From: Edaphobacter aggregans
Lineage (GTDB): Bacteria > Acidobacteriota > Terriglobia > Terriglobales > Acidobacteriaceae
NCBI RefSeq assembly: GCF_003945235.1
Contig: NZ_RSDW01000001.1
Coordinates: 3,420,001 to 3,452,000 of the forward strand
Direction: 5' to 3'
DNA length: 32,000 nucleotides
The notes beneath the pieces were generated by a model. The model searched no databases and was not told where the DNA came from. It worked only from the letters and a program-made list of their open reading frames with translations. The translations under genes and the position numbers were made by a program. Below, piece after piece: positions 15,301 through 32,000 of this stretch (its first letter is position 1; every line of letters starts with the position of its first letter).

Positions 15301-15955
15301 TCGATGGGTAGATCAGGATCGTGCGGTTCGATCCGACGTCGTTGTTGTTCACGCCATCGACCAGGAACAGGTTGTTCGTTGTCGGATTGCCGTTGACCGA
15401 CATATCGACGCCGCCGTTCAGGCCTTTACCCGTGTTCTGGAAGCCGTTTGCTGCAGAGACGCCCGGTTGAAGCTGCGTCAGCTGTACAAAGTTGCGGCCG
15501 TTCAGTGGGAGCTCCCTCACCTGGGTTCCATCCACGACCACGCCCAGGCTGGCGCTGTCGGTCTGCACCTGGAGCGCATTCGCCTGTACGGTGACAGTCT
15601 CGGATACACTTCCCACTTGGAGTTGAGCGTCCACTGTTGTCGTTGTGGCGACGTGAACGATTGCACTCTTTACTCGGAATTCCTTGAAATTGCCGGCTGA
15701 AATTGAGACGTCATATACAGCATCCGGTAGTTCCGCCACGGTGTAGTTGCCCTGAGCATCCGTCGTGGCATTGAACGTCTTCCCTGTCGCCGTGTTCGTA
15801 GCAGTAATGACTGCTCCCGCAACACCGGCTCCGGAAGTATCCGTTACCGCACCGCTAATTGTACCTGTAAGTTTTTGTGCGTACGCCGAAAGCGTGCCCA
15901 GCAATAGAGCTGTGATCAACGCCGTAAGAAGTGACCAGCTTGGTGATCGTTTCAT
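12395..15955 (-). CDS. TonB-dependent outer-membrane receptor with N-terminal carboxypeptidase-regulatory-like domain
   Basis: A signal peptide (MKRSPSWSLLTALITALLLGTLSAYAQ) is followed by a CarboxypepD_reg pattern (GTISGAVTDTSGAGVAGAVITATNTATGKTFNATTDAQGNYTVAELPDAVYDVSISAGNFKEF). Next is a plug-like region (ELPLNGRNFVQLTQLQPGV) and a long beta-barrel ending in a terminal Phe (QYGLHVNF). GGGAGG lies 6 nt upstream of the ATG. Confidence 0.93.
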   Translation of the reverse strand: MKRSPSWSLLTALITALLLGTLSAYAQKLTGTISGAVTDTSGAGVAGAVITATNTATGKTFNATTDAQGNYTVAELPDAVYDVSISAGNFKEFRVKSAIVHVATTTTVDAQLQVGSVSETVTVQANALQVQTDSASLGVVVDGTQVRELPLNGRNFVQLTQLQPGVSAANGFQNTGKGLNGGVDMSVNGNPTTNNLFLVDGVNNNDVGSNRTILIYPSNEAIAEFKMLLNSYGPEYGQASGSVISIITRGGTNTFHGSAFYNGRNDALNTYTFFSAPNAGKGLPLDGKDKQRRNDWGYSIGGPVLKDKLFFFWSQEWNHEIKGRQVSACVPTAAERAGDFSVLGCNTSGLPNFSAVPAGKLAGPSKLAAVDPSAATMMQMLPLPTTPNGALNSNGQNWSASLPTALNWRQENVRGDFDLNHTNHIMGRYTQDSWENPAFNAGYWGDTVYPALNSNWAQPSKSITTHWTSTIRNTLVNDAAFNYSNNRISITPGGTNPGLLTQVTAAVPTLYPASLKHSALGVPQVNFGSYGGNTSLQAPWQNQLDIYTFRDDVSWVKGQHNFKFGAFFGFNGKNEDVNSSTGERPSVGGSIATTAGGIDTNDTLANLELTGNVFNINETSTNVRAQLRWRDYEFYAGDTWRVSPKVTFTYGVRYSLLLQPFQPDDQITSFQPQLYNPSAPSSDACNGLWVAPGKDPCGAANSQFGTNFSHGTPGPNRSLINNGHNHFAPRLGVAYDVFGEGKTVVRAGVGQFFQRERVSRYTLVANAPFALTTNNYARTLGGATPASLSGTASPSGGEDPNANLPNSWQWNLAVEHQMAKNTIFQAAYVGNRGIHLTNSYDVNSIAPNNWMAATFANSNAVNLLRPFPAGGNNSTLTYWAHGGYSNYNGLQLSLNSHISSILQLGAAYTWSHALTNVVTDDSGGGIGNQSLTYYTNPRLDYGTSNVNRPNMFVANAIWFLPKLQGSNAMMRGVLGGWELATILTSQNGNNFTIFQGAHENNLGINPATGKTYTSQLNQSGALVQTGFTSPQRPLLTGQSPVANRHTNTIINPGAFTLIGYALGTLPSNMAQRGVVGGPNFNNTDMSLDKNWPLFHEKATIKFSLDFFNLFNHPNFNPASLSQGSPVSAVNCGGPIGTNASTGHSLYAPCSATNNIVSAQDLQTGFGTSSGLIGNARQIQYGLHVNF

Positions 15956-16411: not shown

Positions 16412-18277
16412 TTAGCGGTTACGGGTTGGACCAATTTCCTTCGCGTCCACCACTCCGCGTCCCTCGAGCACAGCGTAGAACTGGTCTACTGCGAGCCCAC
16501 CCAACTTCTCGATCTTCCCCGAGGGCCAACGCACCTCCACCGAGTCGATCTTTGTCGCCTGTGCTAGCCCGAAGTGCAGACGCAAGTCATTCTGCGAGAG
16601 GTAGCTTCCACCGCTTCGCACCTCATCGGTCTGAGTCATACCTCCAGCCGTAACCGTCACTCGCGCGCCCAACGCCAGCCGATTGCTCTTCGTGCCCGCA
16701 AGCTCAAAACTCACCCAGTGCGCGCCTGCGACACCTTTATTGTGCAAAATCATCGGCGAGCCATCAACATCAGAGACCACGACATCCACATTGCCGTCGT
16801 TATCCAGATCCGCGATCGCCAGTCCGCGGCTTACACGTGGCTGCTGAAGCGCTTCTCCAGCCTGCTTACTGGCGTCACAGAAGAGACCATTGCGCTCATT
16901 CATGAAAAGGTTCTTCGGCTGGCGATACCGCGCGCCCGATGGAAGCGAGTCCACCTGCGGATATACCTGTCCGTTCACTGCAATCAGATCGGCCCAACCA
17001 TCGTTATCCAGATCCACAAACGCATCGCCCCACTTCACCCACGGAAGCGTTGCCAGCGCAACCCCGGCATCGTAGGAAACATCGCGGAAGTCATAGTTCC
17101 CGAGATTCTTGTAGAGCGCGTTCTCCTCGTCCGCGAAGTTCGTAACGTAGATGGAAAATTTTCCCGTGTGGTTGTAGTCGGCCACTGCGACGCCCATCGA
17201 ACCCTGCTCGGAGCCATCCGCGCTCACCGCAGTGCCGGATTCCAGACCAATCTCCGAAAATTTCCCGTTGCCCTCGTTCTTGTAAAGAAAGTTCGGCGTC
17301 GAGTCGTTGGCGACATAGATGTCAGGCCGACCCGTATTGTTGAAATCCGACCACACTACCCCGAGGCCGTAATAACCGTTCGGATCACTTACGCCCGCTG
17401 CCTTCGAAACATCTGTAAACGTTCCATCGCCGTTGTTGTGGTACAGAGCGTCACCCGCTCCTTTTAGTCCGCGCGGCCCACACTGGACATCGATCCCGCG
17501 ATACCTGCAGGTCGGCGTTTTGCCGAAGCCCGGCAGATCCGTCAATTTGAAATCGACGTAGTTGGTGACCATCAGGTCCACGAACCCGTCCCCGTCGTAG
17601 TCGCCGAAGGCCGCGCCAGTCGACCAGCGCCCATCGACCACGCCTGCCTTCTTTGTCACATCGGTGAATGTTCCGTCGCCGTTGTTGCGATAGAGGACGT
17701 TGCCCCCCAGACATGTCACGTATATGTCTGGGTAGCCGTCGTTGTTGTAGTCGCCGACTGCTCCGCCCATGGCGAAGCACGGTGTTGCCACGCCTGCCTT
17801 ATCCGTTACATCGGTGAAGGTGCCGTCGTGGTTGTTGTGATACAGCGCGCTGCGAGCCTTCTCGCCCTTTAACGCCATCTCAACCGTAGGTGCATTTGTG
17901 AAGTAGATGTCGGGCCAGCCGTCACGGTCGTAATCGAGGATCAGAACACCACCGCTCATCGACTCGACGATGTACTTCTTGTCGGGTGCAGAAAGATGAC
18001 GGAAGTGAATCCCTGACTTCTCCGTTACGTCCACCAACTCAGGGACCGCCCGGTTTTTGCACGTCTCCGATCTCGCGCCGGGAGGAGGAAGAGCGCTTGG
18101 ACTGTGAGCCTGTGCGCACAGACTAGCCACCAACGCGGTCTGCAGGCCCCAGGCCACAATTCCACGTCGACCGCTCCTGATAACGGAGCGCCTTCGAGTT
18201 TCAATAAAGTATGCCAAGTGCCGGGATAGGGGAAATAGACCAAACACCCCCTGCCGCCTCCAGACGATGCTGATCAT
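16412..18277 (-). CDS. CRTAC1-family protein (FG-GAP/VCBS repeats plus ASPIC/UnbV C-terminal domain)
   Basis: Repeated DxDGDGxxD-like calcium-binding/FG-GAP motifs are present (DYDRDGWPDIYFTN, GDYNNDGYPDIYVT, GDYDGDGFVDLMVTN, ADLDNDGNVDVVVSD). The tail is UnbV_ASPIC-like (RSGGSYLSQNDLRLHFGLAQATKIDSVEVRWPSGK). The start is uncertain: the ORF track gives TTG 18337, and I list ATG 18277. Confidence 0.85.
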   Translation of the reverse strand: MISIVWRRQGVFGLFPLSRHLAYFIETRRRSVIRSGRRGIVAWGLQTALVASLCAQAHSPSALPPPGARSETCKNRAVPELVDVTEKSGIHFRHLSAPDKKYIVESMSGGVLILDYDRDGWPDIYFTNAPTVEMALKGEKARSALYHNNHDGTFTDVTDKAGVATPCFAMGGAVGDYNNDGYPDIYVTCLGGNVLYRNNGDGTFTDVTKKAGVVDGRWSTGAAFGDYDGDGFVDLMVTNYVDFKLTDLPGFGKTPTCRYRGIDVQCGPRGLKGAGDALYHNNGDGTFTDVSKAAGVSDPNGYYGLGVVWSDFNNTGRPDIYVANDSTPNFLYKNEGNGKFSEIGLESGTAVSADGSEQGSMGVAVADYNHTGKFSIYVTNFADEENALYKNLGNYDFRDVSYDAGVALATLPWVKWGDAFVDLDNDGWADLIAVNGQVYPQVDSLPSGARYRQPKNLFMNERNGLFCDASKQAGEALQQPRVSRGLAIADLDNDGNVDVVVSDVDGSPMILHNKGVAGAHWVSFELAGTKSNRLALGARVTVTAGGMTQTDEVRSGGSYLSQNDLRLHFGLAQATKIDSVEVRWPSGKIEKLGGLAVDQFYAVLEGRGVVDAKEIGPTRNR

Positions 18278-18364
18278 TCTACTAAACCCAGTTTTGCTGT
18301 CTTTGCACGCACAGATCAGGATATGTCTCTTTAGCAACTATAGATTCGGTTGATTGCCAGTCCC

Positions 18365-19777
18365 CTACGTGATGATGAATGTGGTGACGCTCAACGGTGT
18401 CGTCGTCACCTCGATTTGTCCGTTGGTAGCCGCGATCGTAGGTAGCTTTGCGTGCGTCTCTGTATTTGATGTCCGCACTGCGGTGCAAGTCGTCGCGTTG
18501 AACCCACCGCACTGAATCGTCAGCGGGCGCTCTACCGCGTCGTCGTTGATTGCGACGCAGACCAGGCGCTTGCCCGTCGGATCGATGTAAGCCGAAAAAT
18601 ATGTGTTCGGCGCCGGCGTAGGGCTCGCATCCACCCTGTGAAACCCAGGGCGGATAAAACGTGAGAAGTGCCCGATTGTGAAGAATCGCTTCGATAGCTG
18701 ATACTTCTTGTTCGGCACATCGATCGCAATCAGCGAACTCCGTGACGTCGTCGTTGCTGCCCCCCACCAATATAGCCACGCACTTACGTCATCCTCAATC
18801 ATGTGTGTGTGCACCACGCGCGCCCAGTAGACGCCGTCGTTCATGTTCGTGATGTTGGCGTCGCCTGCGCTGACCTCGGTCTCCCAGATCGCCTTCTTCT
18901 TGTCTAGCGCTGTTGAGAACCGTCCCGTCCGCGCACTGATCGATACGTAAGGGGCAGACGTGGGCGCGTACGCATGTGCCGCCGCAATCTGAATCGCCTT
19001 GTCGCACACCGGATCAGCGAGAATTTCGTTGATCATATCGTCGCTCCAGTGTTCGTGCTCGTTAATGACGATCTTTGCGGAGACGCCCTTCGCTTCGAAC
19101 GTCGGGATCAGGTTCTGTCGCAGAAATTTTGCCATCTGCCCGCCGGTCCAACGGCACGACGCATACTTCTGCGTCGGCGTAAAATTCGGTTCGTTCGCAG
19201 GCGAGATCGCGTAGATATCGAGATCGTATCGCTTCTTGTACTCCAGCACGTACGTCGCGAGGTAGTCTGCGTATTGCTGATACATCGCTGGCTTCAACTC
19301 GCCAGCATAGCTGTCACCGTTGGACTTCATCCACGCCGGCGGCGACCACGCGCTGCTCATAAACCGCGCGCATCCACGTTTTTTCGCCTCATTCATCAGC
19401 CAGATCTGGTCTTCGTCGCCTGTCCAGTTGAACTCAGCCGACTTCGGCTCGATCGACGCCACTGTGCCGTCGGTTTTACCCGCCCCCTCTGGTCCATCGC
19501 CAATCTCATTGCGCAGGATCGAGTAGCCCATGCCGCCGTTCGGCGAAAACATCAGGTTCAACAGATTGTTCTGATCCTTCTCCTCCAGGAGACGAATCGT
19601 ACGCGCCGCGTGGAAGGCCTCCGAAAATCCGAACCCATCAATCAGCTGACGATAGTGGTCCGGCGTTGTCGCAATACCTGCCGCAGCCGGTTTTTCTGTC
19701 GCGTATAGCCCACCCGCATATCCTAATGCTGCCATTCCCGCACTTGTGCGCAGAAATGACCGTCGTGTCATTGCCAT
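18365..19777 (-). CDS. Glycoside hydrolase family 30-like enzyme, Tat signal
   Basis: Tat-type N-terminus (MTRRSFLRTSAGMAALGYAGG). GH30-like motifs are GFGFSEAF, SAWSPPAWMK, an acid/base region ISPANEPNF and a nucleophile region AIWETEVS. Three in-frame ATGs occur at 19792, 19777 and 19771. ATG 19777 has GAGG 5 nt upstream. Confidence 0.8.
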   Translation of the reverse strand: MAMTRRSFLRTSAGMAALGYAGGLYATEKPAAAGIATTPDHYRQLIDGFGFSEAFHAARTIRLLEEKDQNNLLNLMFSPNGGMGYSILRNEIGDGPEGAGKTDGTVASIEPKSAEFNWTGDEDQIWLMNEAKKRGCARFMSSAWSPPAWMKSNGDSYAGELKPAMYQQYADYLATYVLEYKKRYDLDIYAISPANEPNFTPTQKYASCRWTGGQMAKFLRQNLIPTFEAKGVSAKIVINEHEHWSDDMINEILADPVCDKAIQIAAAHAYAPTSAPYVSISARTGRFSTALDKKKAIWETEVSAGDANITNMNDGVYWARVVHTHMIEDDVSAWLYWWGAATTTSRSSLIAIDVPNKKYQLSKRFFTIGHFSRFIRPGFHRVDASPTPAPNTYFSAYIDPTGKRLVCVAINDDAVERPLTIQCGGFNATTCTAVRTSNTETHAKLPTIAATNGQIEVTTTPLSVTTFIIT

Positions 19778-20047
19778 TAAAACCTCACACATCTCTCTCG
19801 AAGGAGGAGTTCCACTTTATATTCTGCAATCGAAGAAAATCAACCCCACATTTACGCTATATTCTGAAACCATTTCTTATCAGGGCGAACTGCTCGCACT
19901 TCCACACCCTTCCATTGCATTCTAACTATTTTCTTCAATCACCAAAGGAATGGCACTTTCAGCCCCAACTCGGATACGCTGGTACACAGCGCCGGCCGGC
20001 CGGCTGATTTATTTAGACAATCTACGAACGCGAAGGTGATCGAAACG

Positions 20048-21526
20048 ATGTATTTCGGAATCGACTGCGGTACTCAGGGCACGAAGGCCCTGGTGATCGA
20101 TGAAAACGGAACCTCCCTCGGGCGTGGCTATGCTCCGCACGCGCTCATCGAACGTGAAACCGGTGCGCGCGAACAGCAGCCTGAGTGGTGGGTCGAGGCC
20201 CTCCGCACCTCTGTCTGTCAGGCCCTGGCGCAGTCGCCGAGCAAAGCCGTACAGGCGCTCGGCGTTTCGGGCCAGCAGCACGGCCTCGTGGTCCTTGATG
20301 AGCACCACAACGTTATCCGCCCTGCCAAACTCTGGAACGACACTGAAACAGCGCCCGAAAACCAGCAACTCGTCGAACTACTTGGCGGCAAACAAGCCTG
20401 CTTCGAGCGCTTCGGCATCGTACCGTTGACAGGCTATACCGTCTCCAAGCTGCTCTGGCTCAAGCGTCACGAACCCGAAAACTTTGCCCGTATCCGCCAC
20501 ATTCTCCTGCCGCACGAGTACCTCAACTTCTGGCTCACGGGCCGCATGTGCGCGGAGTACGGGGACGCCTCCGGCACTGCCTTCTTCGACATCCGCTCCC
20601 GTCGCTGGACCCGCGAGGTGCTCGATGCTATTGATGGGGGCACCGGTCAGCTCTTCGCCGCGCTTCCCCCTTTCATCACCGTGGACGAGCCCGTCGGCAC
20701 GCTGCGCCCCGAAGTAGCCGCAGAGTTCGGCCTTCCCCACTCCTGCATCGTCTCCGCCGGTGGTGGCGACAATATGATGGGCGCTATTGGTACAGGCAAT
20801 GTCCGCGAGGGTGTTGTCACCCTCAGCCTCGGCACTTCTTCCACCGTCTACTCCTTCCACGATCAGCCCGTGCTCGACCCCACCGGCAATGTTGCCCCGT
20901 TCTGCTCCTCCTCCGGGGGCTGGCTACCCCTCGTCTGCACCATGAACGCGACCAATGTCGTTACGCAGACGCTCAACACTCTCGGCAAAACCGTGCAGGA
21001 TATCGAAGCGGCACTCGCCGCCACTCCTCCCGGTGCCAATGGCCTCGTCTTTCTCCCCTTCCTTAACGGAGAGCGTACACCCGACCTCCCAAATGCTCGC
21101 GGAACGCTCACAGGTATCTCGGCTAATAACTTCACGCCCGAGAACCTCATCCGCGCCGCTATTGAAGGCGTCAGCTTCGGCATCCTCAATGGCCTCGACC
21201 TCATTCAGAGCGAAGCGCCGGTCGACCGTATGCTCGTTATCGGCGGAGGATCCCGTTCTGCCGCCTGGCGACAACTCCTCGCGGATGCCAGCGGTGCTAC
21301 CGTGGAGGTCCCACTCGAAGAAGAGGCTGGCTGCCTCGGCGCTGCCATTCAGGCCATCTATACCTACAGCCATGCCAACGGCCATCCAAAGAGCTTCGCC
21401 GAACTGGCCAGCCGTTGCGTCAAAGTCGAGGCCACCCGTACTGCCCACCCAAACACCGCTCTGCGCGCAGCCTACCGTCAAGCTCGCGATCAGTATCAGT
21501 CCAGTTTGAGGATTATTTATAACTAG
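20048..21526 (+). CDS. xylB: FGGY-family sugar kinase, most likely xylulokinase
   Basis: The N-terminus MYFGIDCGTQGTKALVIDENG is the FGGY phosphate-1 motif. The overall length and the motifs GVSGQQHGLV and GGGDNMMGAIGTG fit XylB-type kinases. ATG 20048 is preferred over GTG 20036 because GAAGG lies upstream. Confidence 0.8.
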   Translation: MYFGIDCGTQGTKALVIDENGTSLGRGYAPHALIERETGAREQQPEWWVEALRTSVCQALAQSPSKAVQALGVSGQQHGLVVLDEHHNVIRPAKLWNDTETAPENQQLVELLGGKQACFERFGIVPLTGYTVSKLLWLKRHEPENFARIRHILLPHEYLNFWLTGRMCAEYGDASGTAFFDIRSRRWTREVLDAIDGGTGQLFAALPPFITVDEPVGTLRPEVAAEFGLPHSCIVSAGGGDNMMGAIGTGNVREGVVTLSLGTSSTVYSFHDQPVLDPTGNVAPFCSSSGGWLPLVCTMNATNVVTQTLNTLGKTVQDIEAALAATPPGANGLVFLPFLNGERTPDLPNARGTLTGISANNFTPENLIRAAIEGVSFGILNGLDLIQSEAPVDRMLVIGGGSRSAAWRQLLADASGATVEVPLEEEAGCLGAAIQAIYTYSHANGHPKSFAELASRCVKVEATRTAHPNTALRAAYRQARDQYQSSLRIIYN

Positions 21527-21561: not shown

Positions 21562-22968
21562 CTATGCTTTAAGACCATACCTTTGAATCTTATAAAGTAG
21601 CGTTCGGTAGCTGATGTTCAGGACCTTGGCGGCTCTTCTTCGATTCCATCCCGAAGTAGACAATGCATCTTCGAGCATACGGATTTCTGCCTGATTCTTG
21701 ACTCCATTGACCACGTCTCTCATGTTGGCAGAAGCAGGTGGTTTCTTCTCTACTATAGGTTCCACAGGGACTACGGTATTGACTCGCGTCTTGGTCCGCA
21801 GGTCGTTGTATGCGGATTCCTCGTCCTGGAGGACAAGTGTGCGGGTGACAAAGTTACGCAACTCGCGAAGATTTCCAGGCCAGTGGTATTCCTGAGCTGC
21901 TTCCATAATTCGACTGGAGAAGGTAGAGGGTTGTTCAGGCCGGGACGCACCTCTGCGTATCAACTCTCGCATCAACAATGGGATCTCTTCACGGCGTTCG
22001 CGTAGCGGAGGAACGGTAATGGTTAGGGTGTTTAGACGATAGTAAAGATCTTCGCGGAAACGCTTTTCAGCCAGCGCATCCAACATGTTGATATTGGTGG
22101 CCGCGAGAACGCGTACATCAACTTGGGTGCTAACGCGCGCTCCAAGACGGCAGAAGGAGCCATCCTGCAGTACGTGAAGCAATTTGGCCTGCATCTGTGG
22201 GCTCATTTCACCAATTTCGTCCAGTAGCAGAGTTCCTTTATTGGCGAGTTCAAACTTGCCCGGCTTGGATTTCATTGCGCCGGTAAAAGCTCCCGCCTCG
22301 TAGCCAAATAGTTCACTTTCGAGAAGTTCTGTGGGTAGAGCGGCACAATTGACGTTGAGGAAACTTCTGTCCGCACTTGAGTGATACTTATGCAGCAGCA
22401 TGGCCACTATTTCCTTACCTACGCCGCTCTCACCCAGAATGAGTACTGGAATGTCGACGGGAGCGAGAAGGCGGACATCTTTGTAAAGTTGCATCATCGT
22501 GGGTGACGCTGCCAGGAAAAAGCGGTTATTGTCCAATTCTTCCAAATGGTTGGGAAGGTTCGTTGGGTTGTTTGCTTGCGGGGTTCCTACTGCTGTTGGC
22601 TCGACCTTGGGCCAGGAAGTCAGCTTCTCCAGGTCTTTCTGCAGCAGAGGCTTCGTCAGCACAGTTTTAATGCTCCATTTCGCGGCGTATTTCTCCCAGG
22701 ATGTGTCTCCAATTTCTGAGAGGATGCACAATTTCTCGCTGCTTAGATGTTGCAGAAGATCTGAGGCGAAGAGGCCATCCCGCGATTTACTCTTAACTGC
22801 GTCGAACAAGAGAAAATCTGCGACCACTCCTGTGTGCAATAACTGGAGAGCCTCGCGAGAGGAAGAAACGCACATGGATTTATGACCATTGGATCCCAGA
22901 GAAGTGTGAATCATGTTGCAGACATCGATGTCGTCGCTAATTGCTAAAATCTGCAATGCGTGCGTCAT
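21562..22968 (-). CDS. Sigma-54-dependent transcriptional activator (NtrC-family response regulator: REC + AAA+ + Fis-type HTH)
   Basis: Walker A GESGVGKE, the sigma-54 contact loop GAFTGA, a C-terminal HTH (RRRAAKVLNISYRTLLYKIQRYGL), and an N-terminal receiver with D12/D13, D56, S84 and K106 equivalents. The start is placed at ATG 22968 (MTHALQILAISDD) with GAGGTG upstream. The ORF track extends to 23109. Confidence 0.9.
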   Translation of the reverse strand: MTHALQILAISDDIDVCNMIHTSLGSNGHKSMCVSSSREALQLLHTGVVADFLLFDAVKSKSRDGLFASDLLQHLSSEKLCILSEIGDTSWEKYAAKWSIKTVLTKPLLQKDLEKLTSWPKVEPTAVGTPQANNPTNLPNHLEELDNNRFFLAASPTMMQLYKDVRLLAPVDIPVLILGESGVGKEIVAMLLHKYHSSADRSFLNVNCAALPTELLESELFGYEAGAFTGAMKSKPGKFELANKGTLLLDEIGEMSPQMQAKLLHVLQDGSFCRLGARVSTQVDVRVLAATNINMLDALAEKRFREDLYYRLNTLTITVPPLRERREEIPLLMRELIRRGASRPEQPSTFSSRIMEAAQEYHWPGNLRELRNFVTRTLVLQDEESAYNDLRTKTRVNTVVPVEPIVEKKPPASANMRDVVNGVKNQAEIRMLEDALSTSGWNRRRAAKVLNISYRTLLYKIQRYGLKA

Positions 22969-23860
22969 GTAACACACCTCAAGGCGGAATCGAATAGGTG
23001 GACCAGATGCTACAGAGAGCGAACTATACCAGCCGGGTCGTTTCCAACCTAGCATTTGTCTAACAGATCGATTATTTGTAAAGGGCCCGGAGAACCTTAT
23101 GATAAACACGACGCATCATCGTCGTTTGGCAGATGGCAAGTGCAAAAAATTGCAAAAAGAAAATCAATCCATATATTTACTTCAGGTCGTAATGATGGGT
23201 TGAGTTACCCGCTTTGGATTGCGCCAAGCATTAATGCCCACGAACGATCCCTGAAGTGCAGCGAATTTAACGCTATCCCCGGAAAGTGTCAACAAAAAAT
23301 TGCACACATGGGATGCAGTTAGTCTGCATGGATCGATTTAGCAGCCCTAAGTTATATTGAGTCACAGGATAGCTAATGACCGAGAGAGTTATTAATTTTT
23401 CACTGCGCGACGAAGATAAAAAGATAGTCATGGTTACTAACTGAAGTGTCGGTAACCTTTAAGTACCCTGTTCATTTTGAAGGCATCGAGCAATCGGACG
23501 GCACCATGAAATATCGCGTTGGTGGTCAAGAGGTTGAGGTTTATCGGTGTGTTCGAAAGCGATTTAAGTAGTTGCTGGCGTCCGGCGACAGACATCAAAC
23601 TTTTGCCCAAGCTCGATCTCGATCGTGACGTTTCGGTTGCTGCGGAGTGCCTTGATTGCTGGGAGTACCTCTGCTATAAACATAGCTTGCACGTCAGAAA
23701 CCAACAATAAGGTCTATTGGTAACCAATTAGTGTGATTGTGTCCCCCTAAATACGAATGTCAATCTGAAGTCGTGAGGGGTGAAACATTCCGCTCTTCCC
23801 ATTGACGCGGCTTATCAAAAAGCCGTAAATCGCTGCACAAACTTTGATCTTGTACGAACG

Positions 23861-24053
23861 TTGGGAATGAAAGGCGACTTGAGCAGCTCTCATGAAAGTT
23901 GCCAGGTAAAGACAAATCGTTCCCCTACATTGAGCGCCAATGCTGATTGATGGCACGCATTTCGTACGAGACATGTAGCGCTTCCCTTTTTTCCTTTTTG
24001 CTCTGCCTCTTATCCATGCACTTTTTGCACGTTTCAAGAGGTGATGTTCGTGT
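23861..24053 (+). promoter_or_regulatory. Conserved leader/upstream region, copy B (paralogous to minus-strand 10074..9881)
   Basis: It has the same ordered identical blocks as copy A, ending in the identical 18-mer AAGAGGTGATGTTCGTGT (24036-24053 = rc of 9880-9897). A non-conserved 51-nt segment of equal length in both copies separates the conserved blocks. Confidence 0.7.
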
Positions 24054-26134
24054 CGCCCAAATATGTTATTCCTGTCTCGTCGGGCCGCGTTGTTTCAGCG
24101 CTTTCTCGCACTTCTTATGCTGTCTCTCGGAAGCTGACCAGGCTCCGAATCTGGCTAGGCACACGATCTCGCGAGTGCGATAGTGTATGGATCGCTTTTG
24201 GGATGGCTTGCTTCCTGGTGTTGGCAATCTCCGGTTGTGGGTCGGGGGTCAATGGAAATCTGTCGGTGAGCACCCCGAGTCTGAGTTTTGGAAATGTCAC
24301 GGTCAACTCCGCTACAACACAGGTGTTGATACTGACATCGACGGGCACCTCTCCGGTAACGGTGACCGCAGCGTCAGTTACGGGAGCGGGCTTCTCTATC
24401 CTAGGTGGTAGCTTCCCGTTGATGTTGAATCCGGCGCAGACGGTGACGCTGCAGATACAGTTTCAGCCAACCTCAGCGGGAGCAGCAGCGGGACAACTCA
24501 CGATCAACACCAACTCAACTGATGGCGGCGGCACAGCCGTCGTAGCACTCAGCGGTATGGGCATGGCGGCTACCTCTGCTCCGCCAGCGGCTCCGCAATT
24601 GGCGGTGAGCACCTCGAATCTAAGTTTTGGCAATGTGGCTGTAAACTCGTCAATGACGCAACCGGTGACGCTGACCTCGACGGGCACTTCGGCGGTAACG
24701 GTGAACTCAGCGTCAATTACAGGCGCGGGCTTCTCTATTGTTGGAGGAAGCTTCCCAGTAACGTTGAATCCGACGCAATCAGTGACGCTGCAGGTACAGT
24801 TCCTACCAAGCTCAGGAGGAGCGGCTGGAGGACAACTCACGATCAGCAGTAACTCTGCTATCAGTGGCGCGATCATCGTGGCGCTCAGCGGTATGGGTGC
24901 GGCGGCGACCGGCTCTGCTCCGCCAACTGATCCGCAGCTAACAGTGAGCGCCTCGAACTTAAGTTTCGGCAGTGTGACGGTGAGCACGTCGACAACGCAG
25001 TCGGTAACGCTGGCCTCGACGGGCACTTCGCCGGTAACAGTGAACTCGGCGTCGATTACAGGCGCGGGCTTCTCTATCGTTGGGGGAAGCTTCCCGTTGA
25101 CGTTGAATCCGACGCAGACAGTGACGCTGCAGGTACAGTTTCAGCCGGCATCAGCAGGAGCAGTTGCAGGACAACTCGCGATCAGCAGTAACTCCGTCAG
25201 TGGGGGCGCCATCGCGGTGGCCCTTACCGGTACAGGGGTCACGGTCGCGGATCCCCAATTGACGGTGAGTATCGCCGGCCTGAGTTTTGGAAACGTGACG
25301 GTGAACTCCTCGATGATGCAGTCGGTGACACTGAAGTCGACAGGCACTTCGCCTGTAACGGTGAACTCGGTATCGATTGGAGGTGCGGGTTTTACTATCC
25401 TTGCGGGGAGCTTCCCTGTAGCGTTGAATCCGGGTCAGTCAGTGACGCTGCAGGTGCAGTTCTTACCAGCCTCAGCTGGAGCGGCTGCGGGACAGCTCAC
25501 GATCAACAGCAACTCGACCAGCGGGAACGCGGCGATCGTGACTTTGAACGGTACGGGCGTGACTGCGAATCCGCAGTTGACGGTGAGTGTTGCCAGCCTG
25601 GAATTTGGTAGCGTGACGTTAAATACTTCGACAACGCAGTCGGTAACGTTGACATCGACAGGCACTTCTGCGGTGACGGTAAACTCCCTGTCGATCAGCG
25701 GAGGAGGCTTCTCTATCTTGGGCGGTAGTTTCCCGCTAACTCTAAATCCAAATCAGACTGCGACGCTGCAGATACAGTTTTTGCCGACCTCGGCGGGAGC
25801 AGTTGCGGGACAGCTCACGATCAACAGCAACTCGGTAGGCGGAAGCGTAGCAACTGTAGCTCTCAGTGGGACGGGAGCGGCGAGCGCGCATTCGGTCGAC
25901 CTTAGTTGGGACGCGCCAAGTAGTTCACCCGATCCAGTGGTGGGTTATAACATATATCGGTCGACAAGCAGTAGTGGACCTTTCCAATTGATTAACTCGT
26001 CTCCAGACGCACAAACCACTTATGTGGATAGCACGGTTATCAGTGGCAGTACCTACAGTTACTACGTAGAGAGTGTCGACGCGAGCGGCGTAGAAAGCAC
26101 TCAATCGAACGAGATTTCGGTGAAGATCCCCTAG
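24050..26134 (+). CDS. Lipoprotein with five tandem Ig-like (choice-of-anchor-D/ASH-type) repeats and a C-terminal FN3 domain
   Basis: ORF 24041..26134. Lipobox LVLAISGC. Five ~106-113-aa repeats (PQLTVS..LSFG.VTVN...TQSVTLTSTGTSPVTVNSASITGAGFSI.GGSFP.TLNP.Q.VTLQVQF.P.SAGA.AGQLTI.SNS) are followed by FN3 (DLSWDAPSSSPDPVVGYNIYRS ... YSYYVESVDASGVES). The start is ambiguous among GTG 24041, ATG 24044 and GTG 24050. Confidence 0.88.
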   Translation: MSPKYVIPVSSGRVVSALSRTSYAVSRKLTRLRIWLGTRSRECDSVWIAFGMACFLVLAISGCGSGVNGNLSVSTPSLSFGNVTVNSATTQVLILTSTGTSPVTVTAASVTGAGFSILGGSFPLMLNPAQTVTLQIQFQPTSAGAAAGQLTINTNSTDGGGTAVVALSGMGMAATSAPPAAPQLAVSTSNLSFGNVAVNSSMTQPVTLTSTGTSAVTVNSASITGAGFSIVGGSFPVTLNPTQSVTLQVQFLPSSGGAAGGQLTISSNSAISGAIIVALSGMGAAATGSAPPTDPQLTVSASNLSFGSVTVSTSTTQSVTLASTGTSPVTVNSASITGAGFSIVGGSFPLTLNPTQTVTLQVQFQPASAGAVAGQLAISSNSVSGGAIAVALTGTGVTVADPQLTVSIAGLSFGNVTVNSSMMQSVTLKSTGTSPVTVNSVSIGGAGFTILAGSFPVALNPGQSVTLQVQFLPASAGAAAGQLTINSNSTSGNAAIVTLNGTGVTANPQLTVSVASLEFGSVTLNTSTTQSVTLTSTGTSAVTVNSLSISGGGFSILGGSFPLTLNPNQTATLQIQFLPTSAGAVAGQLTINSNSVGGSVATVALSGTGAASAHSVDLSWDAPSSSPDPVVGYNIYRSTSSSGPFQLINSSPDAQTTYVDSTVISGSTYSYYVESVDASGVESTQSNEISVKIP
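24257..25888 (+). repeat. Five diverged tandem coding repeats (Ig-like domain units of 318-339 bp)
   Basis: Unit starts, read from the translation, are 24257, 24593, 24932, 25253 and 25571. The units are clearly related at protein level but diverged at DNA level, unlike the triplication at 8021-9676. Confidence 0.85.
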
Positions 26135-26597: not shown

Positions 26598-27221
26598 ATG
26601 CTGACCCCTCAGAGCATCGACATAGAACAAGACACCTCGGGCTGGTGGGCTCTCTACACCCGCCATCAGCACGAGAAGGCAGTGGCGGAGATGCTGTCAG
26701 CAAAGGGCTTTGAGGTATTTCTGCCGCTTTATGAATCAATACGGCGCTGGAAAGACAGAAGTAAGATGCTTGCGCTACCGCTGTTCCCCTGCTATGTCTT
26801 CGTTCGGGGAGGACTCAATCGTCGATTGCAGGTCGTGTCAACTCCCGGAATTCATATGATTCTGTCTCGTGGCGAACGCATCGCGATCATTCCGGAAGCC
26901 GAAATTCAAGCGATTCAAAGAGCGGTCGAAGGGCCCTTTCGCGTGGAACCACATCCTTTCTTGAAGTGTGGTGAACTGGTTCGTGTCATACGGGGCTCCC
27001 TTGAAGGCGTCGAAGGGGTCTTGGTCCGCAAGAAGAATCTGTATCGTCTGGTTCTATCCGTGGACATGATGGCGCAATCCGTGGCCGTAGAGATTGACGC
27101 CACTGACGTGGAGCCGGTGATGGCGCGAGGCGCAGCCGTGTTCGTGATCAACCAAGTTACGGGGCCCGTGAGATTTGGTGAATCGTCACTTTGTAGTGGA
27201 CGACAAATAACCAGTATTTGA
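26598..27221 (+). CDS. NusG-paralog transcription antiterminator (NGN + KOW; UpxY/RfaH-like operon-specific type)
   Basis: NGN pattern: WWALYTRHQHEKAVAEMLSAKGFEVFLPLY ... PLFPCYVFVRG. KOW-like pattern: GELVRVIRGSLEGVEGVLVRKKNLYRLVLSV. It is the first gene of a polysaccharide export cluster. Confidence 0.8.
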   Translation: MLTPQSIDIEQDTSGWWALYTRHQHEKAVAEMLSAKGFEVFLPLYESIRRWKDRSKMLALPLFPCYVFVRGGLNRRLQVVSTPGIHMILSRGERIAIIPEAEIQAIQRAVEGPFRVEPHPFLKCGELVRVIRGSLEGVEGVLVRKKNLYRLVLSVDMMAQSVAVEIDATDVEPVMARGAAVFVINQVTGPVRFGESSLCSGRQITSI

Positions 27222-27456
27222 GAAGAGTCGATCAGACTTGGATGAGATCGTCTCCAAAATGCTTCAACCAAGTCGGACAGCGTGAATCAGCATGTACCCT
27301 TATCACTTCAGTCTCGTATCGCAGACTCAGGTTCTGACTCAGATCTCTGATAAAGAGAGTCAGGTTGGAGGACAAGAGAGATTCGCCAGACGCCAAGGCA
27401 AACCTCTCCAGGGATCCTCGTCGGAAGTCATTTTAAAAAGCAATACAGATCACTCA

Positions 27457-28092
27457 ATGGGATTAGGATTCCTTTTGATTGTTCTTTCCGGTTCTTTATT
27501 AGCTCAAGTGCCAGCCGCAGGTCAGGCTAGTAACAAACTCCCGGTAGCCACCATTGCGGCTTCTCCAGTGCGACCTCTGGCACCATCGGACAGCAAACCA
27601 CACGATGATAGCTTCCTCATAGGTAATGACGACGTTCTGGCGATTAATGTCTGGAAAGAGCCTGACCTCACTCGGTCGATTCAAGTGCGATCGGACGGAA
27701 AGATTTCGTTACCTCTGGTAGGAGAAGTTCAAGCAACAGGACGGACTCCTGTGCAACTCGAACAGGATATAGCTACCAAACTCCGGATCTACATTACCAA
27801 ACCAGAAGTTACGGTAATGGTGGAAAAGATTAACAGCGATAAGTTTAATATCCTTGGACAGGTAGCAAAGCCAGGATCATACTCGCTTGCGCTCGCGCCA
27901 ACAGTTATGGACGCTATCGCAATTGCTGGTGGCCCCGGAGATTTCGCTAAGCAGAAAGCCATTTATATTCTTCGACAGAATCCCGATGGTGGTCAGTCGC
28001 GTATCGCCTTCAATTACAGGGACTTTATCAAAGGCAAAAACTTACATCAGAACATCAAACTCGAACCGCACGACACCGTCGTCGTGCCTTGA
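27457..28092 (+). CDS. Polysaccharide export protein (OPX/Wza family, short form: Poly_export + SLBB)
   Basis: IGNDDVLAINVWKEPDLTRSIQVRSDGKISLPLVGEVQATGRTPVQLEQDIATKL ... FNILGQVAKPGSYSL ... TVMDAIAIAGG matches the OPX PES/SLBB pattern. The start is placed at ATG 27457 (MGLGFLLIVLSGSLLAQ, signal-like). The ORF track starts at 27292. Confidence 0.82.
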   Translation: MGLGFLLIVLSGSLLAQVPAAGQASNKLPVATIAASPVRPLAPSDSKPHDDSFLIGNDDVLAINVWKEPDLTRSIQVRSDGKISLPLVGEVQATGRTPVQLEQDIATKLRIYITKPEVTVMVEKINSDKFNILGQVAKPGSYSLALAPTVMDAIAIAGGPGDFAKQKAIYILRQNPDGGQSRIAFNYRDFIKGKNLHQNIKLEPHDTVVVP

Positions 28093-28266
28093 AGGGCTGC
28101 TTGGAATTCCCCGTAATACTCTCAGCGTTGCCCTCGGTCGCCGGTCTGGCCTAGACCATAAAATCGGTTGTGGCGTTCTCGATCCACAAGGGTACTCCGT
28201 TCTTTTCATACCCAACCACCAGTTCATCTCTGCCATTTATCAGTACACGCACCGCTGGAGACAATC

Positions 28267-29874
28267 ATGGAAGAGATCTCCGAGGAACAAAATTCCGAAC
28301 GAACTGACATCGAACACTACCTGAACATAATCCGTCGCCGCCACATCCATTTTTTTGTACCACTATTTCTAGGGTGGCTCGTGGTTTGGGGGGCCAGTTG
28401 GGTTTTACCGGTGAGCTACAAATCGGGCACGCTCATCTTGGTAGAGCAGCCCACTATGCCTAAAAACTACGTCGTTCCGAATGTCAACGACGATTTACAG
28501 AATCGCCTGCAGAGCATTACGCAACAAATTCTTAGTCGGACGCGCCTTCTTCTGATCATTGACAAGTTGCACCTCTATGGTGACAGCCATCGTCAGCTTA
28601 CGTCAGATGAAAAAGTTGAGCGAATGCGCAAAGACATTGACATCGAACTCGTACATAATTCTCAGGGCGACCAGATCACGGCATTCAAGATCAACTATTC
28701 GGCGCGTGACCCTCGTGTTGCCCAACGTGTAACAAGCGAACTGACTAACCTCTTTATTAGCGAAAATCTAAAAGTGCGCCAACAACTATCTGAAGACACC
28801 ACTAAGTTTATCGGTAGCCAGTTGGAAAATGCACGTTCAAACCTAGCAGAACAGGAAGCTAAAATTAGAGAGTTTAAAGGGGAACATGTGGGAGAGTTGC
28901 CTTCCCAAGAAACAAGCAACCTACAAATTCTAAGCGGGCTCCAGGCGCAGCTACAGAACGCTCAGGATACTCTTAACACTGCGAAACAGCAGCGAGTTTA
29001 CCTCCAGACGTTGATCGAGCAATACCGGGCTCTTCATACGTCTTCCCGGACTGCCGACGGTGCCCCGACAGGTTTGTCAGCAATTGACCAAGAACTCGAT
29101 CGATTAAAGTCGAAGCTAGCAGACCTTAGCACTCGCTACACCGATCAATACCCGGAAGTCGAGAATCTAAAAGATGAAATATCCAAGACCGAAAAGGTGA
29201 GGAGCGCGCTCGTTGCTGAGTTGAAGAAGAAAAACAATAGCGGGGGGCAGGTCGACAGTACTGCTACACGCGACGGAGCGGATCCATCACAAAACTCGTC
29301 GCTGTTGCAGTTGCAAGGCCAACTGCAAGCCAATCAAGCCGAGATCACGAATCGTGAGCAAGCAATCGCCGGGTTACAAGCGAGAGTCAACGGCTACCAG
29401 GATCGGTTGAATTCTGCGCCTACACGTGAGCAGCAGCTAGCAGATCTGACACGTGGTTATGACCAAACTAAGGCTAATTACGACGACCTGCTAAAAAAGC
29501 AGAACGAATCAGAGATGGCAACCAGCATGGAATATATGCAGCAGGGAGAACGCTTCAGCATGATTGATCCTCCGAGCTTGCCACTGAAACCGGATTTCCC
29601 CAATCGTCTCAAATTCTGTGGAATCGGGCTGGGCGTCGGTCTCGCGTTGGGCCTCCTTGTGGTAGGTGGACTCGAAGCTATGGATCATCGCCTGCACAGC
29701 GAAAAGGAAATTAAAGCCCTACTTCCGATGGCGATCTTATCTGAGATCCCTGAGATCGTAAGCCCGTCGGATGAACGAAGCAGCAAAAGGAAGATGGTAC
29801 TGGGATGGGCGATGGGGGCACTAATCATAACCACCATCTTGGCAGGCTCTGCCATCAGTTACCTGCGCGGTTAG
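28267..29874 (+). CDS. Polysaccharide chain-length determinant / co-polymerase (PCP, GumC/Wzz-like, no kinase domain)
   Basis: N-terminal TM (FFVPLFLGWLVVWGASWVL), a Wzz-like motif (YKSGTLILVEQ), a long coiled-coil periplasmic region and a C-terminal TM (GIGLGVGLALGLLVVGGL). The start is at ATG 28267 with GGAGA 6 nt upstream. Confidence 0.85.
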   Translation: MEEISEEQNSERTDIEHYLNIIRRRHIHFFVPLFLGWLVVWGASWVLPVSYKSGTLILVEQPTMPKNYVVPNVNDDLQNRLQSITQQILSRTRLLLIIDKLHLYGDSHRQLTSDEKVERMRKDIDIELVHNSQGDQITAFKINYSARDPRVAQRVTSELTNLFISENLKVRQQLSEDTTKFIGSQLENARSNLAEQEAKIREFKGEHVGELPSQETSNLQILSGLQAQLQNAQDTLNTAKQQRVYLQTLIEQYRALHTSSRTADGAPTGLSAIDQELDRLKSKLADLSTRYTDQYPEVENLKDEISKTEKVRSALVAELKKKNNSGGQVDSTATRDGADPSQNSSLLQLQGQLQANQAEITNREQAIAGLQARVNGYQDRLNSAPTREQQLADLTRGYDQTKANYDDLLKKQNESEMATSMEYMQQGERFSMIDPPSLPLKPDFPNRLKFCGIGLGVGLALGLLVVGGLEAMDHRLHSEKEIKALLPMAILSEIPEIVSPSDERSSKRKMVLGWAMGALIITTILAGSAISYLRG

Positions 29875-30035
29875 GTTTATTTTCTAAATGTACAAAGCGT
29901 TCTTCCATCTCACGATCGAATCCTTTGACCTTACATCCAATCCCACCCATCGGAAACGTGCTCAATGACTTGGATGCCGCCCTGTGAAGACCTATTGCAG
30001 GCGATGGGTAGCGTTAGCCGTTGAAGCGAGAAAAC

Positions 30036-31037
30036 ATGAGTCGCATATTTGAGGCGTTACAAAGATCGGAAGCCGAACGCTCTGAGATTGATTTGACAGT
30101 GGTGTCAGAAGCAACTGAAGTGCTGCGGCGCGTCGAACGTGAATCAGCATTGAAATGGGATACGCCAGGTTCGTCTGAACAGATTGATGCAACGAAAAAC
30201 TCTGACCGTGAGATGTTGTTCGGCCAATCAGGGAAGTCGCCGGTAGGGACGACACCTGGAACTCATATAGGCGCCAAGCTTTGGCAGGTTGAAGAGCGGC
30301 TGGATCCGTTTGGCCAATTCCAATCCCTGGAGATTTCGCTTACTTCTCAAAGTCGACTGGTAAGTCTGACGGACAGCGGGAGTCCGGCGGCGGAAGCTCT
30401 CCGCCTTCTAGGGGTGCGGTTACGACATCTCCGGCGCGATCGGACGCTTAGGAAAGTGCTGATTACGAGCACAATTCCTCAAGAGGGCAAGAGCATGATT
30501 GCTGCTAACCTAGCTTGCACTCTCGCTCTAAGGACTCAACAAAGAATTTTAGTGTTGGAGGGAGATTTGCGGCGTCCGTCTTTATCGCGGATGTTCGGGC
30601 TCGGAAGGAATCCGGGCCTCTGTGAATGGCTGCGAGGCGAGCGCAGCTTGACGGAGAGTATCTACCATCTCGAAGGCCAGGATCTTTGGATATTGCCCGC
30701 AGGCAGTGCTCCCAGCAATGCACTGGAACTACTGCAATCGGGAAAATTATCTGAGCTGATGGATCAATTAACCGTGTTGTTTGATTGGATCATCATCGAT
30801 TCTCCTCCCGTACTGCCTTTGGCTGACACAAGCGTCTGGATGCGGTTGGCAGACGGAATTCTTCTAATTACGCGTCAAGGAACCACAGAAAGGCGACAAT
30901 TAAAGAAAGGACTCGAAGCGCTCGAGCCTAGAAAGTTGATCGGTGCGCTAGTGAATAGTTCAAAGAACGCGGCAACCAGTGACTACTACTACAGTCCTTC
31001 AACGGCTTCACGGTTGAACGACGCTTCGGCAGAATAA
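30036..31037 (+). CDS. Bacterial tyrosine (BY) autokinase, CpsD/ExoP-C type P-loop ATPase
   Basis: N-terminus MSRIFEALQRSE, Walker A IPQEGKSMIAANLA, Walker A' VLEGDLRRP, Walker B IIIDSPPVLPLADT, and a C-terminal Tyr cluster SDYYYS. ATG 30036 is preferred over the track's TTG 30021. Confidence 0.85.
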   Translation: MSRIFEALQRSEAERSEIDLTVVSEATEVLRRVERESALKWDTPGSSEQIDATKNSDREMLFGQSGKSPVGTTPGTHIGAKLWQVEERLDPFGQFQSLEISLTSQSRLVSLTDSGSPAAEALRLLGVRLRHLRRDRTLRKVLITSTIPQEGKSMIAANLACTLALRTQQRILVLEGDLRRPSLSRMFGLGRNPGLCEWLRGERSLTESIYHLEGQDLWILPAGSAPSNALELLQSGKLSELMDQLTVLFDWIIIDSPPVLPLADTSVWMRLADGILLITRQGTTERRQLKKGLEALEPRKLIGALVNSSKNAATSDYYYSPSTASRLNDASAE

Positions 31038-31210
31038 TTCTCTGATTCTCTTATATCCAAAGTCGCCCCATACAGACCCTATTTACACGAACAGTTCTAA
31101 TCGCTTGTTTTTCTCTTACCTCAAGAAAAAATAAGTTAAGAACAAGCTATGAACAATCGTTCCTAACAGACAACAAAAAAGTAAATTGGCCACAAAGAGA
31201 GGAGTTGGCT

Positions 31211-32000
31211 GTGACTCTGCTGCGTATGGATAAAGCTTCAAATCCGGCTGACCCTCTATTAGAGTGGTTATCCATTGGAACGCGCGAGGTTCTGAACGAA
31301 GGAACCTTTAAGAGAATGATTGCCGTCGAGCGCAAAAGGACGGAGCGTTCCAGGGAGCCGTTCCTTCTTATGTTGCTGGAGGCTGGCAATCCTCAGGGTT
31401 CGGAAAAGAATGGAAAAGTTCTCGACAGTATGCTGTCTGCCCTGCTGGTATCCATCAGGGAAACCGACGTAATCGGCTGGTACAAAGATGGTACTACCGT
31501 TGGTGTAATGTTTACGGGACTCGCGGGCAATGACAAGAACTCGATCCTGAGCGTGATCTTAAGCAAGGTGAGCACGACGCTAAAAGCCCAGTTGACATCA
31601 GACCATCTTAGTCAAGTAAGTATCTCCTTCCATTTCTTTCCCGATGACTGGGGCCATGACAACTCCGGACGCCCAAGCAATCCATCTTTGTATCCGGATC
31701 TGTTGAGCCCGGATAAGCGGAGATGTGTCCTGCTGCGCATCAAACAAGTAATGGATGTTGCCGGAAGTGCACTGATACTAATCCTTTGTACGCCTCTACT
31801 TTTGGTGATTGCAGTGGCAATCAAGGCGTCATCCAAAGGGCCTGTCCTTTTTCGGCAACAGCGAGTCGGACAGTACGGCCAAAGCTTTACATTCCTGAAA
31901 TTCAGATCGATGCACACAAACAATGACCATAGCGTTCACAAAGAGTATGTGACTAAATTAATTGCAGGTGAGGCAGAGCATAAACCGTTCAACGGGAATG
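31211..32000 (+). CDS. Priming polyprenyl-phosphate sugar-phosphate transferase (bacterial sugar transferase family) with N-terminal degenerate GGDEF-like domain; 3' end outside window
   Basis: It is not in the ORF track because it has no stop in the window. My hand translation from GTG 31211 (or ATG 31226), preceded by GAGAGGAG, is open to position 32000. The transferase-domain start motif is VMDVAGSALILILCTPLLLVIAVAIKASSKGPVLFRQQRVGQYGQSFTFLKFRSM. Confidence 0.85.
   Translation, partial: MTLLRMDKASNPADPLLEWLSIGTREVLNEGTFKRMIAVERKRTERSREPFLLMLLEAGNPQGSEKNGKVLDSMLSALLVSIRETDVIGWYKDGTTVGVMFTGLAGNDKNSILSVILSKVSTTLKAQLTSDHLSQVSISFHFFPDDWGHDNSGRPSNPSLYPDLLSPDKRRCVLLRIKQVMDVAGSALILILCTPLLLVIAVAIKASSKGPVLFRQQRVGQYGQSFTFLKFRSMHTNNDHSVHKEYVTKLIAGEAEHKPFNGN

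Follow-up and report, generated by a model that had tools for sequence, protein, structure and literature searches.

A predicted degenerate GGDEF-fold domain with a conserved RxxD motif, fused to the priming phosphoglycosyl transferase of an Edaphobacter aggregans exopolysaccharide locus, as a putative c-di-GMP receptor

The Fusion Gene and Its Operon

The stretch of DNA analysed here (the window) comprises 32,000 nucleotides (nt) of Edaphobacter aggregans contig NZ_RSDW01000001.1, and includes at its 3' end part of a gene in which a phosphoglycosyl transferase (PGT) is preceded by an N-terminal domain that is predicted to adopt the GGDEF fold of diguanylate cyclases, has lost their catalytic motifs, and has kept the RxxD motif of their inhibitory site (I-site), through which it is a putative receptor of cyclic diguanylate (c-di-GMP). 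The open reading frame (ORF; 31211..32000, like all features described for this gene on the forward strand) starts with a GTG codon at 31211, and the sequence itself shows an AGGAG resembling a Shine-Dalgarno sequence 6 nt 5' of that start (31200..31204); 263 codons are visible before the window ends within the frame. An earlier reading of the same DNA (hereafter the original prediction) had proposed this architecture; the peptides that it quoted (FKRMIAVERKRTERSREPFLLMLLE, KVLDSMLSALLVSIRETDVIGWYKDGTTVGVMFTGL and VSISFHFF) are present in the translation, and the coordinates that it assigned to the motifs RETD and KDGTT are correct.

Translation of 31211–31999 placed about 175 residues ahead of a Bac_transf domain, which occupies residues 178–263 (31742..32000) and was recognised by PF02397, TIGR03025 and sequence matches to WbaP and PglC in the PDB. 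Residues 178–241 matched Bac_transf PF02397 at 7e-19 with 68.5 bits against a cut-off of 27: only 64 of the 179 profile positions fall inside the window, yet the gathering score was exceeded, and the corresponding match to TIGR03025 (NCBIfam) stood at 1.7e-25. Bac_transf is the catalytic core of the monotopic PGTs, such as PglC and WbaP, and the segment visible here contains the re-entrant membrane helix with its conserved proline followed by FLKFRSM. The remaining catalytic motifs fall outside the window; in 72 full-length orthologues SLDELPQ (with the Asp-Glu dyad), VGPRP and KPGITGLWQ are invariant, because of which the enzyme is expected to be active.

The fusion gene belongs to an operon of genes that all run on the forward strand, and is the last of them to be visible in the window. 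At the head of the operon lies an UpxY/RfaH-family antiterminator gene (26598..27221; NF033644, 122 bits against a cut-off of 100), followed by genes for a Wza-like polysaccharide export protein (27292..28092; Poly_export plus SLBB, TIGR03027), a chain-length determinant of the polysaccharide co-polymerase (PCP) type (28168..29874; TIGR03007, 274.5 bits against a cut-off of 278.85), and a bacterial tyrosine kinase (BY-kinase)-like P-loop protein of the polysaccharide tyrosine autokinase family (30021..31037; TIGR01007, 119 bits against a cut-off of 108, and TIGR03018). When one genome per species was scanned, relatives of the fusion protein proved to be encoded in 494 species genomes, essentially all of them Acidobacteriaceae/Terriglobia, and in the best 80 of these, on which the synteny counts are based, the export gene was syntenic in 57 loci, the chain-length determinant gene in 66, and the BY-kinase-like gene lay directly 5' of the fusion gene in 70. 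The fusion gene itself was intact, with 380–399 codons and a product of about 384 residues, in 72 of the 80; the originally noted joining of the domain to a PGT stands, and the conserved Wza–PCP–kinase-like synteny places it within an exopolysaccharide (EPS) operon. The gene product, a small monotopic PGT with a cytoplasmic N-terminal domain, is the initiating (priming) enzyme of an EPS pathway of the Wza/PCP/tyrosine-kinase type.

Several of these products resemble components of XrtA/PEP-CTERM EPS loci, and each missed the relevant equivalog cut-off: TIGR03007 by the scores given above, TIGR03027 with 143 against 180, TIGR03018 with 125.8 against 230.65, and an orthologous PGT with 151.8 against 393 on TIGR03013. 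Judged by these best or near-best profile matches, the locus is related to the XrtA/PEP-CTERM loci and falls below curated membership. In Tunturiibacter, the fusion gene is followed on its 3' side by genes for a sugar 3-dehydrogenase, an acetyltransferase, an aminotransferase and glycosyltransferases.

Fold of the N-Terminal Domain

Single-sequence scans of residues 1–175 returned no relevant Pfam or NCBIfam match. An AlphaFold2 model of the N-terminal domain, built from an input alignment of 64 relatives, nevertheless had a confident core (residues 30–143, predicted local distance difference test [pLDDT] about 85–90) with the order helix-strand-helix-strand-strand-helix-strand, while residues 1–24 were modelled with a pLDDT below 50. 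When this model was superposed on the PDB with Foldseek, as a check on the structural similarity originally proposed, the 50 best matches were all GGDEF domains (best E 1.6e-5), among them the Thermotoga maritima diguanylate cyclase, PleD, WspR, a DgcZ-like protein, YfiN and SiaD; 45 matches had E <= 1e-3, the target-normalised template modelling scores were 0.5–0.7, and no other palm-type fold occurred among the 50.

Profile–profile comparison pointed the same way. A family profile of 238 sequences was aligned with hhalign to genuine PleD orthologues, which had been retrieved with a PleD query sequence, and gave P 1.4e-4; against an enlarged cyclase set, comprising the same orthologues together with WspR, DgcZ and AdrA, the score was 35.8 (P 3.6e-5) over 125 columns. 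These three sequences and the PleD query were identified as GGDEF by Pfam with E-values of 1e-45 to 1e-52. Control scores from 60 column-shuffled cyclase profiles were 13.1±2.7 (maximum 21.8) and a single reversed profile scored 14.5, placing the real score about 8 standard deviations higher. The hhalign probability was 53–71% across both cyclase sets, the upper value being that for the enlarged set. Divergent family members also matched PF00990, the GGDEF family proper, below its gathering score of 23.8 bits (P0259, 3.8e-4 and 20.7 bits; P0141, 0.048; P0157, 0.1), as did, weakly, 3 of the 64 closer members.

Taken with the predicted structure, these alignments indicate that approximately the first 150 residues form a GGDEF-fold domain, in keeping with the original prediction. 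By its sequence, the fusion protein is nonetheless to be assigned to Bac_transf and not to any curated GGDEF family, because its PF00990 scores stay below threshold and both the GG(D/E)EF motif and a full metal site are missing.

Alignment Register and Loss of the Catalytic Site

A poorly conserved leader (residues 1–27; 31211..31291), predicted from its low pLDDT and variable columns to be disordered, precedes the degenerate GGDEF-fold domain itself (residues 28–147; 31292..31651), for which AlphaFold2, Foldseek and hhalign together gave the arrangement alpha0-beta1-alpha2-beta2-beta3-alpha3-beta4. Conservation along the domain was counted over a set of 144 relatives from which redundancy at 70% identity or more had been removed, some columns having n = 143. 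The charged end of helix alpha0, ERKRTERS (residues 40–47; 31328..31351), is near-invariant, with E40 and R43 each present in 140 of 143 sequences and R46 in 138; K42-R43 aligned with PleD K312-R313, and R46, by its spacing to the acidic residue of beta1, presumably corresponds to WspR R198. Strand beta1, PFLLMLLE (residues 50–57; 31358..31381), ends in E57, which aligned with the first metal-binding aspartate (PleD D327); 119 of 143 relatives have D or E at this position. The second metal-binding aspartate has been replaced by an A/G-like column, and the claim that the DxD pair was lost is therefore correct for its second member and not for its first, the acidic character of which has been retained. 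The hhalign alignment also indicated that the substrate helix alpha1, FKxxND (FKxIND) in cyclases, has been shortened by about 6 residues.

RETD (residues 83–86; 31457..31468) fell on PleD RAID (R359–D362), the RxxD I-site, in both hhalign and hidden Markov model (HMM)-to-sequence alignments. It is followed by strand beta2, including GWY (residues 89–91; 31475..31483; G89 143/144, W90 142/144, Y91 130/144), in which W90 takes the place of the arginine of the canonical xRyGGDEF, and then by KDGTT (residues 92–96; 31484..31498), which forms the hairpin between beta2 and beta3 where cyclases have GG(D/E)EF and is unconserved, its columns having an entropy of 2.2–3.1 bits and being among the most variable of the domain. 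The five residues between RETD and KDGTT (VIGWY) equal the spacing in PleD (RAID-LPCRY-GGEEF), exactly as originally proposed, and R83 lies nine positions before K92. Further on, helix alpha3 contains K119 (31565..31567), a conserved basic position (R in 102 and K in 40 of 143), and strand beta4 is VSISFHFFPDDW (residues 136–147; 31616..31651), the equivalent of tvSiGva, on which VSISFHFF aligned; S139, H141 and P144 are conserved. Between the domain and the transferase, the conserved linker motif SNPSLYPDL (residues 156–164; 31676..31702; Y161 95/115, P162 111/125) fell on the AD-ALY-AK motif of GGDEF helix alpha4 in an extension of the hhalign alignment and in the alignment of member P0213.

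The same register, with RETD on RxxD and KDGTT on GG(D/E)EF, recurred in the hhalign runs and in the HMM-to-sequence alignments of many members, which upheld the replacement of the catalytic motif by KDGTT. Because GG(D/E)EF is absent, the second metal-binding aspartate gone and the substrate helix shortened, the sequence indicates that cyclase function has been lost.

Selective Conservation of the I-Site Face

The conservation of RETD among relatives had been set beforehand as a point of possible refutation; R83 and D86 were each found in 141 of the 144 members, and T85 in 136. The ten most conserved of about 140 domain columns are G89, P144, W90, R43, D86, F33, R83, E40, L124 and R46, with both R83 and D86 within the first seven. 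On this evidence the catalytic face has decayed freely, and the I-site face, together with the arginine-rich end of alpha0 (R41/R43/R46) and the basic residue of alpha3 (R/K119), has been held fixed by strong purifying selection, the features of the inhibitory site being the only ones of a cyclase that the domain preserves. In PleD and WspR the arginines at the end of alpha0 constitute secondary I-sites, at which a c-di-GMP dimer bridges two domains. A pattern in which catalytic positions are hypervariable while RxxD and the alpha0 arginines are near-invariant is as expected for an I-site receptor.

A third residue, an arginine, completes the primary I-site of PleD (R390) and of PelD (R402). 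The conserved basic residue 119 sits four positions, or one helical turn, past the column aligned with it, and its distance from D86 is 33 residues, compared with 32 in PelD (D370 to R402; PMC8461298) and 28 in PleD. On these spacings R/K119 is a candidate equivalent of PelD R402 and PleD R390.

Distribution and Variants of the Family

The best 80 genomes are almost all from Acidobacteriaceae (Tunturiibacter, Terracidiphilus, Edaphobacter, strain KBS 89 and others), and an exhaustive profile search returned 2405 clusters at 50% identity with E <= 1e-3. When a full-length member resembling that of Candidatus Sulfotelmatobacter was used as the query, 120 full-length clusters with 76–100% identity were recovered; where named, these were called sugar transferase or glycosyltransferase only, and PF02397 was their sole recorded domain. 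The N-terminal domain is invisible to Pfam and NCBIfam, and defining the family would improve the annotation of proteins at present labelled simply as sugar transferases. The fusion occurs in hundreds of species, and the exopolysaccharides of Acidobacteriaceae matter for soil aggregation and survival.

Three divergent members have tandem N-terminal domains ahead of the transferase (P0121, 628 residues; P0141, 558; P0157, 505), an arrangement with no counterpart in the window. Each copy has its own RxxD-GWY, with a partly decayed alpha0 motif in the first copy of P0157, and these variants are consistent with a domain that functions in pairs. A stand-alone form of the domain was considered and rejected, the entries of 150–250 residues that were inspected being broken genes in noisy assemblies. 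Fragment entries of 110–250 residues (P0001, P0003, P0036, P0040 and P0098; loci L003, L060 and L079) have out-of-frame tails or represent split calls, P0098 (L081 4001–5149) being followed by an 83-residue Bac_transf fragment, and they look like frameshift errors of long-read metagenome assemblies.

In one further entry, P0131 (905 residues), an N-terminal half that by sequence reading resembles aspartate kinase is joined to the GGDEF-like/PGT protein, which may reflect gene-calling read-through or a real fusion. Loci L004 and L015 belong to one metagenome-assembled genome (MFD05513.bin.3.315) and each encodes a full-length copy; some genomes may hold paralogous GGDEF-like/PGT genes for different polysaccharide loci.

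Flanking Genes

Upstream of the EPS operon and divergent from it lies a gene for a sigma-54-dependent activator (21562–23109, reverse strand) with AAA+ and Fis-type helix-turn-helix domains, which resembles the PEP-CTERM-box regulator TIGR02915 below cut-off and may control transcription of the operon. Two genes encode large proteins with immunoglobulin (Ig)-like repeats of the ASH/DUF1573/Cep192 type (24041–26134, forward; 7418–9907, reverse); a 697-residue protein of this kind has five repeats, and one of the two genes is directly upstream of the UpxY-type antiterminator gene. Both products are possible components of the cell surface or matrix with a link to the EPS locus. A carbohydrate-use cluster adjoins the locus (12395–15955, 16412–18337 and 18365–19792, all reverse; 20036–21526, forward), encoding a CarboxypepD_reg/outer-membrane beta-barrel protein (1186 residues), an FG-GAP/ASPIC protein, a GH30-like glycoside hydrolase and an FGGY sugar kinase.

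Proposed Mechanism and Alternatives

The reading preferred here is that the N-terminal domain is a putative c-di-GMP receptor like PelD, PssE and BcsE. R83 and D86, probably with R/K119, would hold c-di-GMP as an intercalated dimer, which may in addition contact the alpha0 arginines of another copy of the domain and so bridge the two, as at the secondary I-sites of PleD and WspR. Binding would move the N-terminal domain with respect to the transferase core or to its partners, and this shift would in turn gate the first committed step of the pathway, that which consumes undecaprenyl phosphate (Und-P). Activation at high c-di-GMP is the likely direction of the effect, by analogy with PelD, PssE, BcsA and Alg44. 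That the domain binds c-di-GMP with a regulatory effect on the PGT, a proposal resting on analogy with PelD, PssE and BcsE, is considered an evenly balanced proposition. A more specific version, in which a c-di-GMP dimer cross-links two N-terminal domains, the RxxD of one to the alpha0 arginines of the other, and so switches the priming PGT on, is possible but on the doubtful side; the two domains would come from two enzyme molecules or, in the tandem variants, from one chain.

A number of observations weigh against this reading. At the level of the fold, the window protein gave no PF00990 match even at E <= 10, and the family HMMER profile, when run against all PDB sequences, found only WbaP and PglC, through the transferase part, and no GGDEF protein. 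At the level of the binding site, the column aligned with PleD R390, the third primary I-site residue, is V/T/A and holds no arginine; PelD has a strict requirement for R402, whereas position 119, which is not the aligned column, is occupied by Lys in the window protein and in 28% of relatives. The acidic residues E40 and E45 are as invariant as the I-site residues and, with T85 and W90, suggest that the conserved surface could serve as a protein–protein or intramolecular interface instead of binding a ligand. The full-length AlphaFold2 model had low inter-domain confidence (predicted template modelling score 0.51), with no interface readable. As to genomic context, no GG[DE]EF-bearing ORF, and hence no co-encoded cyclase, was found in the window or in the 80 related loci (about 1 Mb). 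Small ORFs with a PilZ domain, often beside a GerE-type regulator, occur 3–4 kb upstream of the fusion gene in about 6 of 84 loci (L081, 408–710; L052, ~2590–2886; L082/L083, 4034–4378, ~4521; L018, ~910; L058, ~11764), and none is present in the window; a conserved PilZ neighbour was rejected on this low frequency, the occurrences themselves indicating that c-di-GMP signalling exists close to some of these operons.

The main alternative is a ligand-independent scaffold, in which the N-terminal domain either holds the small PGT together as a dimer or attaches it to the co-encoded PCP/BY-kinase-like complex, its conserved R, D, E and W residues forming a protein interface and the domain possibly being a phosphorylation target, as CapM is with CapAB. 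Control of PGTs by partner proteins and tyrosine phosphorylation is documented (PMC12802240), and the BY-kinase-like gene is directly upstream in 70 of the 80 loci. The alternation of acidic and basic residues in ERKRTERS and the conserved aromatics W90, Y91 and Y161 are typical of interfaces, and the tandem variants suggest self-association. A scaffold would leave unexplained why the I-site residues were kept while the other functional motifs of GGDEF domains decayed; purely structural degenerate GGDEF domains, such as those of LapD and FimX, usually lose RxxD. A scaffold function is regarded as rather unlikely.

Feedback control by another small molecule, whether (p)ppGpp, GTP, another cyclic dinucleotide, UMP, a UDP-sugar or Und-P, is improbable. 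GGDEF-fold domains do bind diverse nucleotides, the Foldseek matches included PleD structures with c-di-GMP and ppGpp (9g85/9g86), and an arginine-rich surface would suit a ligand bearing phosphates; against this, the GTP (A) site has been destroyed, RxxD is a guanine-reading motif specific for c-di-GMP in all characterised cases, and nothing in the present data points to another ligand. Chance resemblance, by which a lineage-specific domain unrelated to GGDEF would have a generic ferredoxin-like or palm fold and a coincidental RxxD, might draw on the missing Pfam and NCBIfam matches of the window protein, the HMMER search of PDB sequences and the modest hhalign probability, and is most improbable and already largely refuted by the exclusively GGDEF structural matches, free of other palm domains, by the profile score about 8 standard deviations over shuffles, by the sub-threshold PF00990 matches of several members, and by the alignment in correct order of alpha0 RxxR, the beta1 acidic residue, RxxD, the hairpin, tvSiG and AD-ALY.

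Were c-di-GMP reception by the N-terminal domain to prove true, it would provide a simple mechanism, located inside the priming enzyme, for control of a step that consumes scarce undecaprenyl phosphate. Should the cross-linking version also hold, it would represent the first case of a second messenger directly gating the step that commits the lipid carrier in a Wzx/Wzy-type pathway, and one used across the dominant soil Acidobacteriaceae.

Comparison with Known Systems

No published description of a GGDEF–PGT fusion was found by a full-text literature search that did not cover the monotopic PGT network survey of PGT fusions, which accords with the original remark that no characterised case was known. 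Regulatory domains, for instance receivers, may be present in small PGTs (PMC12802240, citing a network analysis), the post-translational control of Wzx/Wzy-type initiation has been called poorly understood (PMC12802240), and the well-understood cases of post-translational control by c-di-GMP are the synthase-dependent systems for cellulose, alginate, Pel and poly-N-acetylglucosamine (PMC8461298).

Among PGTs, the present family shares with PglC, WbaP, WcaJ and EpsZ a Bac_transf domain with its re-entrant helix, DE dyad and PRP motif. PglC lacks any additional domain, and WbaP-type enzymes have four transmembrane helices plus a nucleotide-binding-like domain, in place of which the present family has a soluble GGDEF-like domain. 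Direct regulators of PGTs have been documented in Myxococcus, where the response regulator EpsW acts on EpsZ, and in Staphylococcus, where CapAB acts on CapM by tyrosine phosphorylation (PMC12802240). Both resemble the mechanism proposed here in that the initiating PGT is itself the target of post-translational control, and differ from it in that a separate phosphorylated response regulator or tyrosine phosphorylation is deployed, whereas here the putative second-messenger receptor is built into the enzyme.

With PleD and WspR, the N-terminal domain shares the predicted fold, an RxxD five residues before the hairpin, and arginines of the alpha0 end at the positions of the secondary I-sites; unlike them, it lacks GG(D/E)EF, the second metal-binding aspartate and receiver domains, and its alpha1 is shortened.

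Closer parallels are offered by degenerate GGDEF domains with an intact RxxD, which bind c-di-GMP in PelD and BcsE (PMC8461298). PssE of Listeria monocytogenes and the BcsE/GIL protein of enterobacterial cellulose synthesis are I-site receptors of c-di-GMP with degenerate GGDEF domains encoded in EPS operons (PMC4125290, PMC8461298), but each is a separate accessory protein that acts on a processive synthase, and neither is fused to a PGT. The likeness extends to PelD of Pseudomonas aeruginosa, in which a degenerate GGDEF domain with RxxD and a further basic residue allows c-di-GMP to switch polysaccharide production post-translationally (PMC8461298), and which is likewise a catalytically dead, membrane-anchored part of an EPS machine. 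PelD is, however, a separate protein with four transmembrane helices, a GAF and a GGDEF domain, which serves a synthase-dependent pathway and recruits the glycosyltransferase PelF; the present domain, a putative receptor without GAF, forms one polypeptide with the enzyme that primes the lipid carrier in a Wza/PCP-type pathway. The fusion is thus an apparently undescribed and well-supported architecture, which by analogy with the PelD, PssE and BcsE receptors would act as a putative switch.

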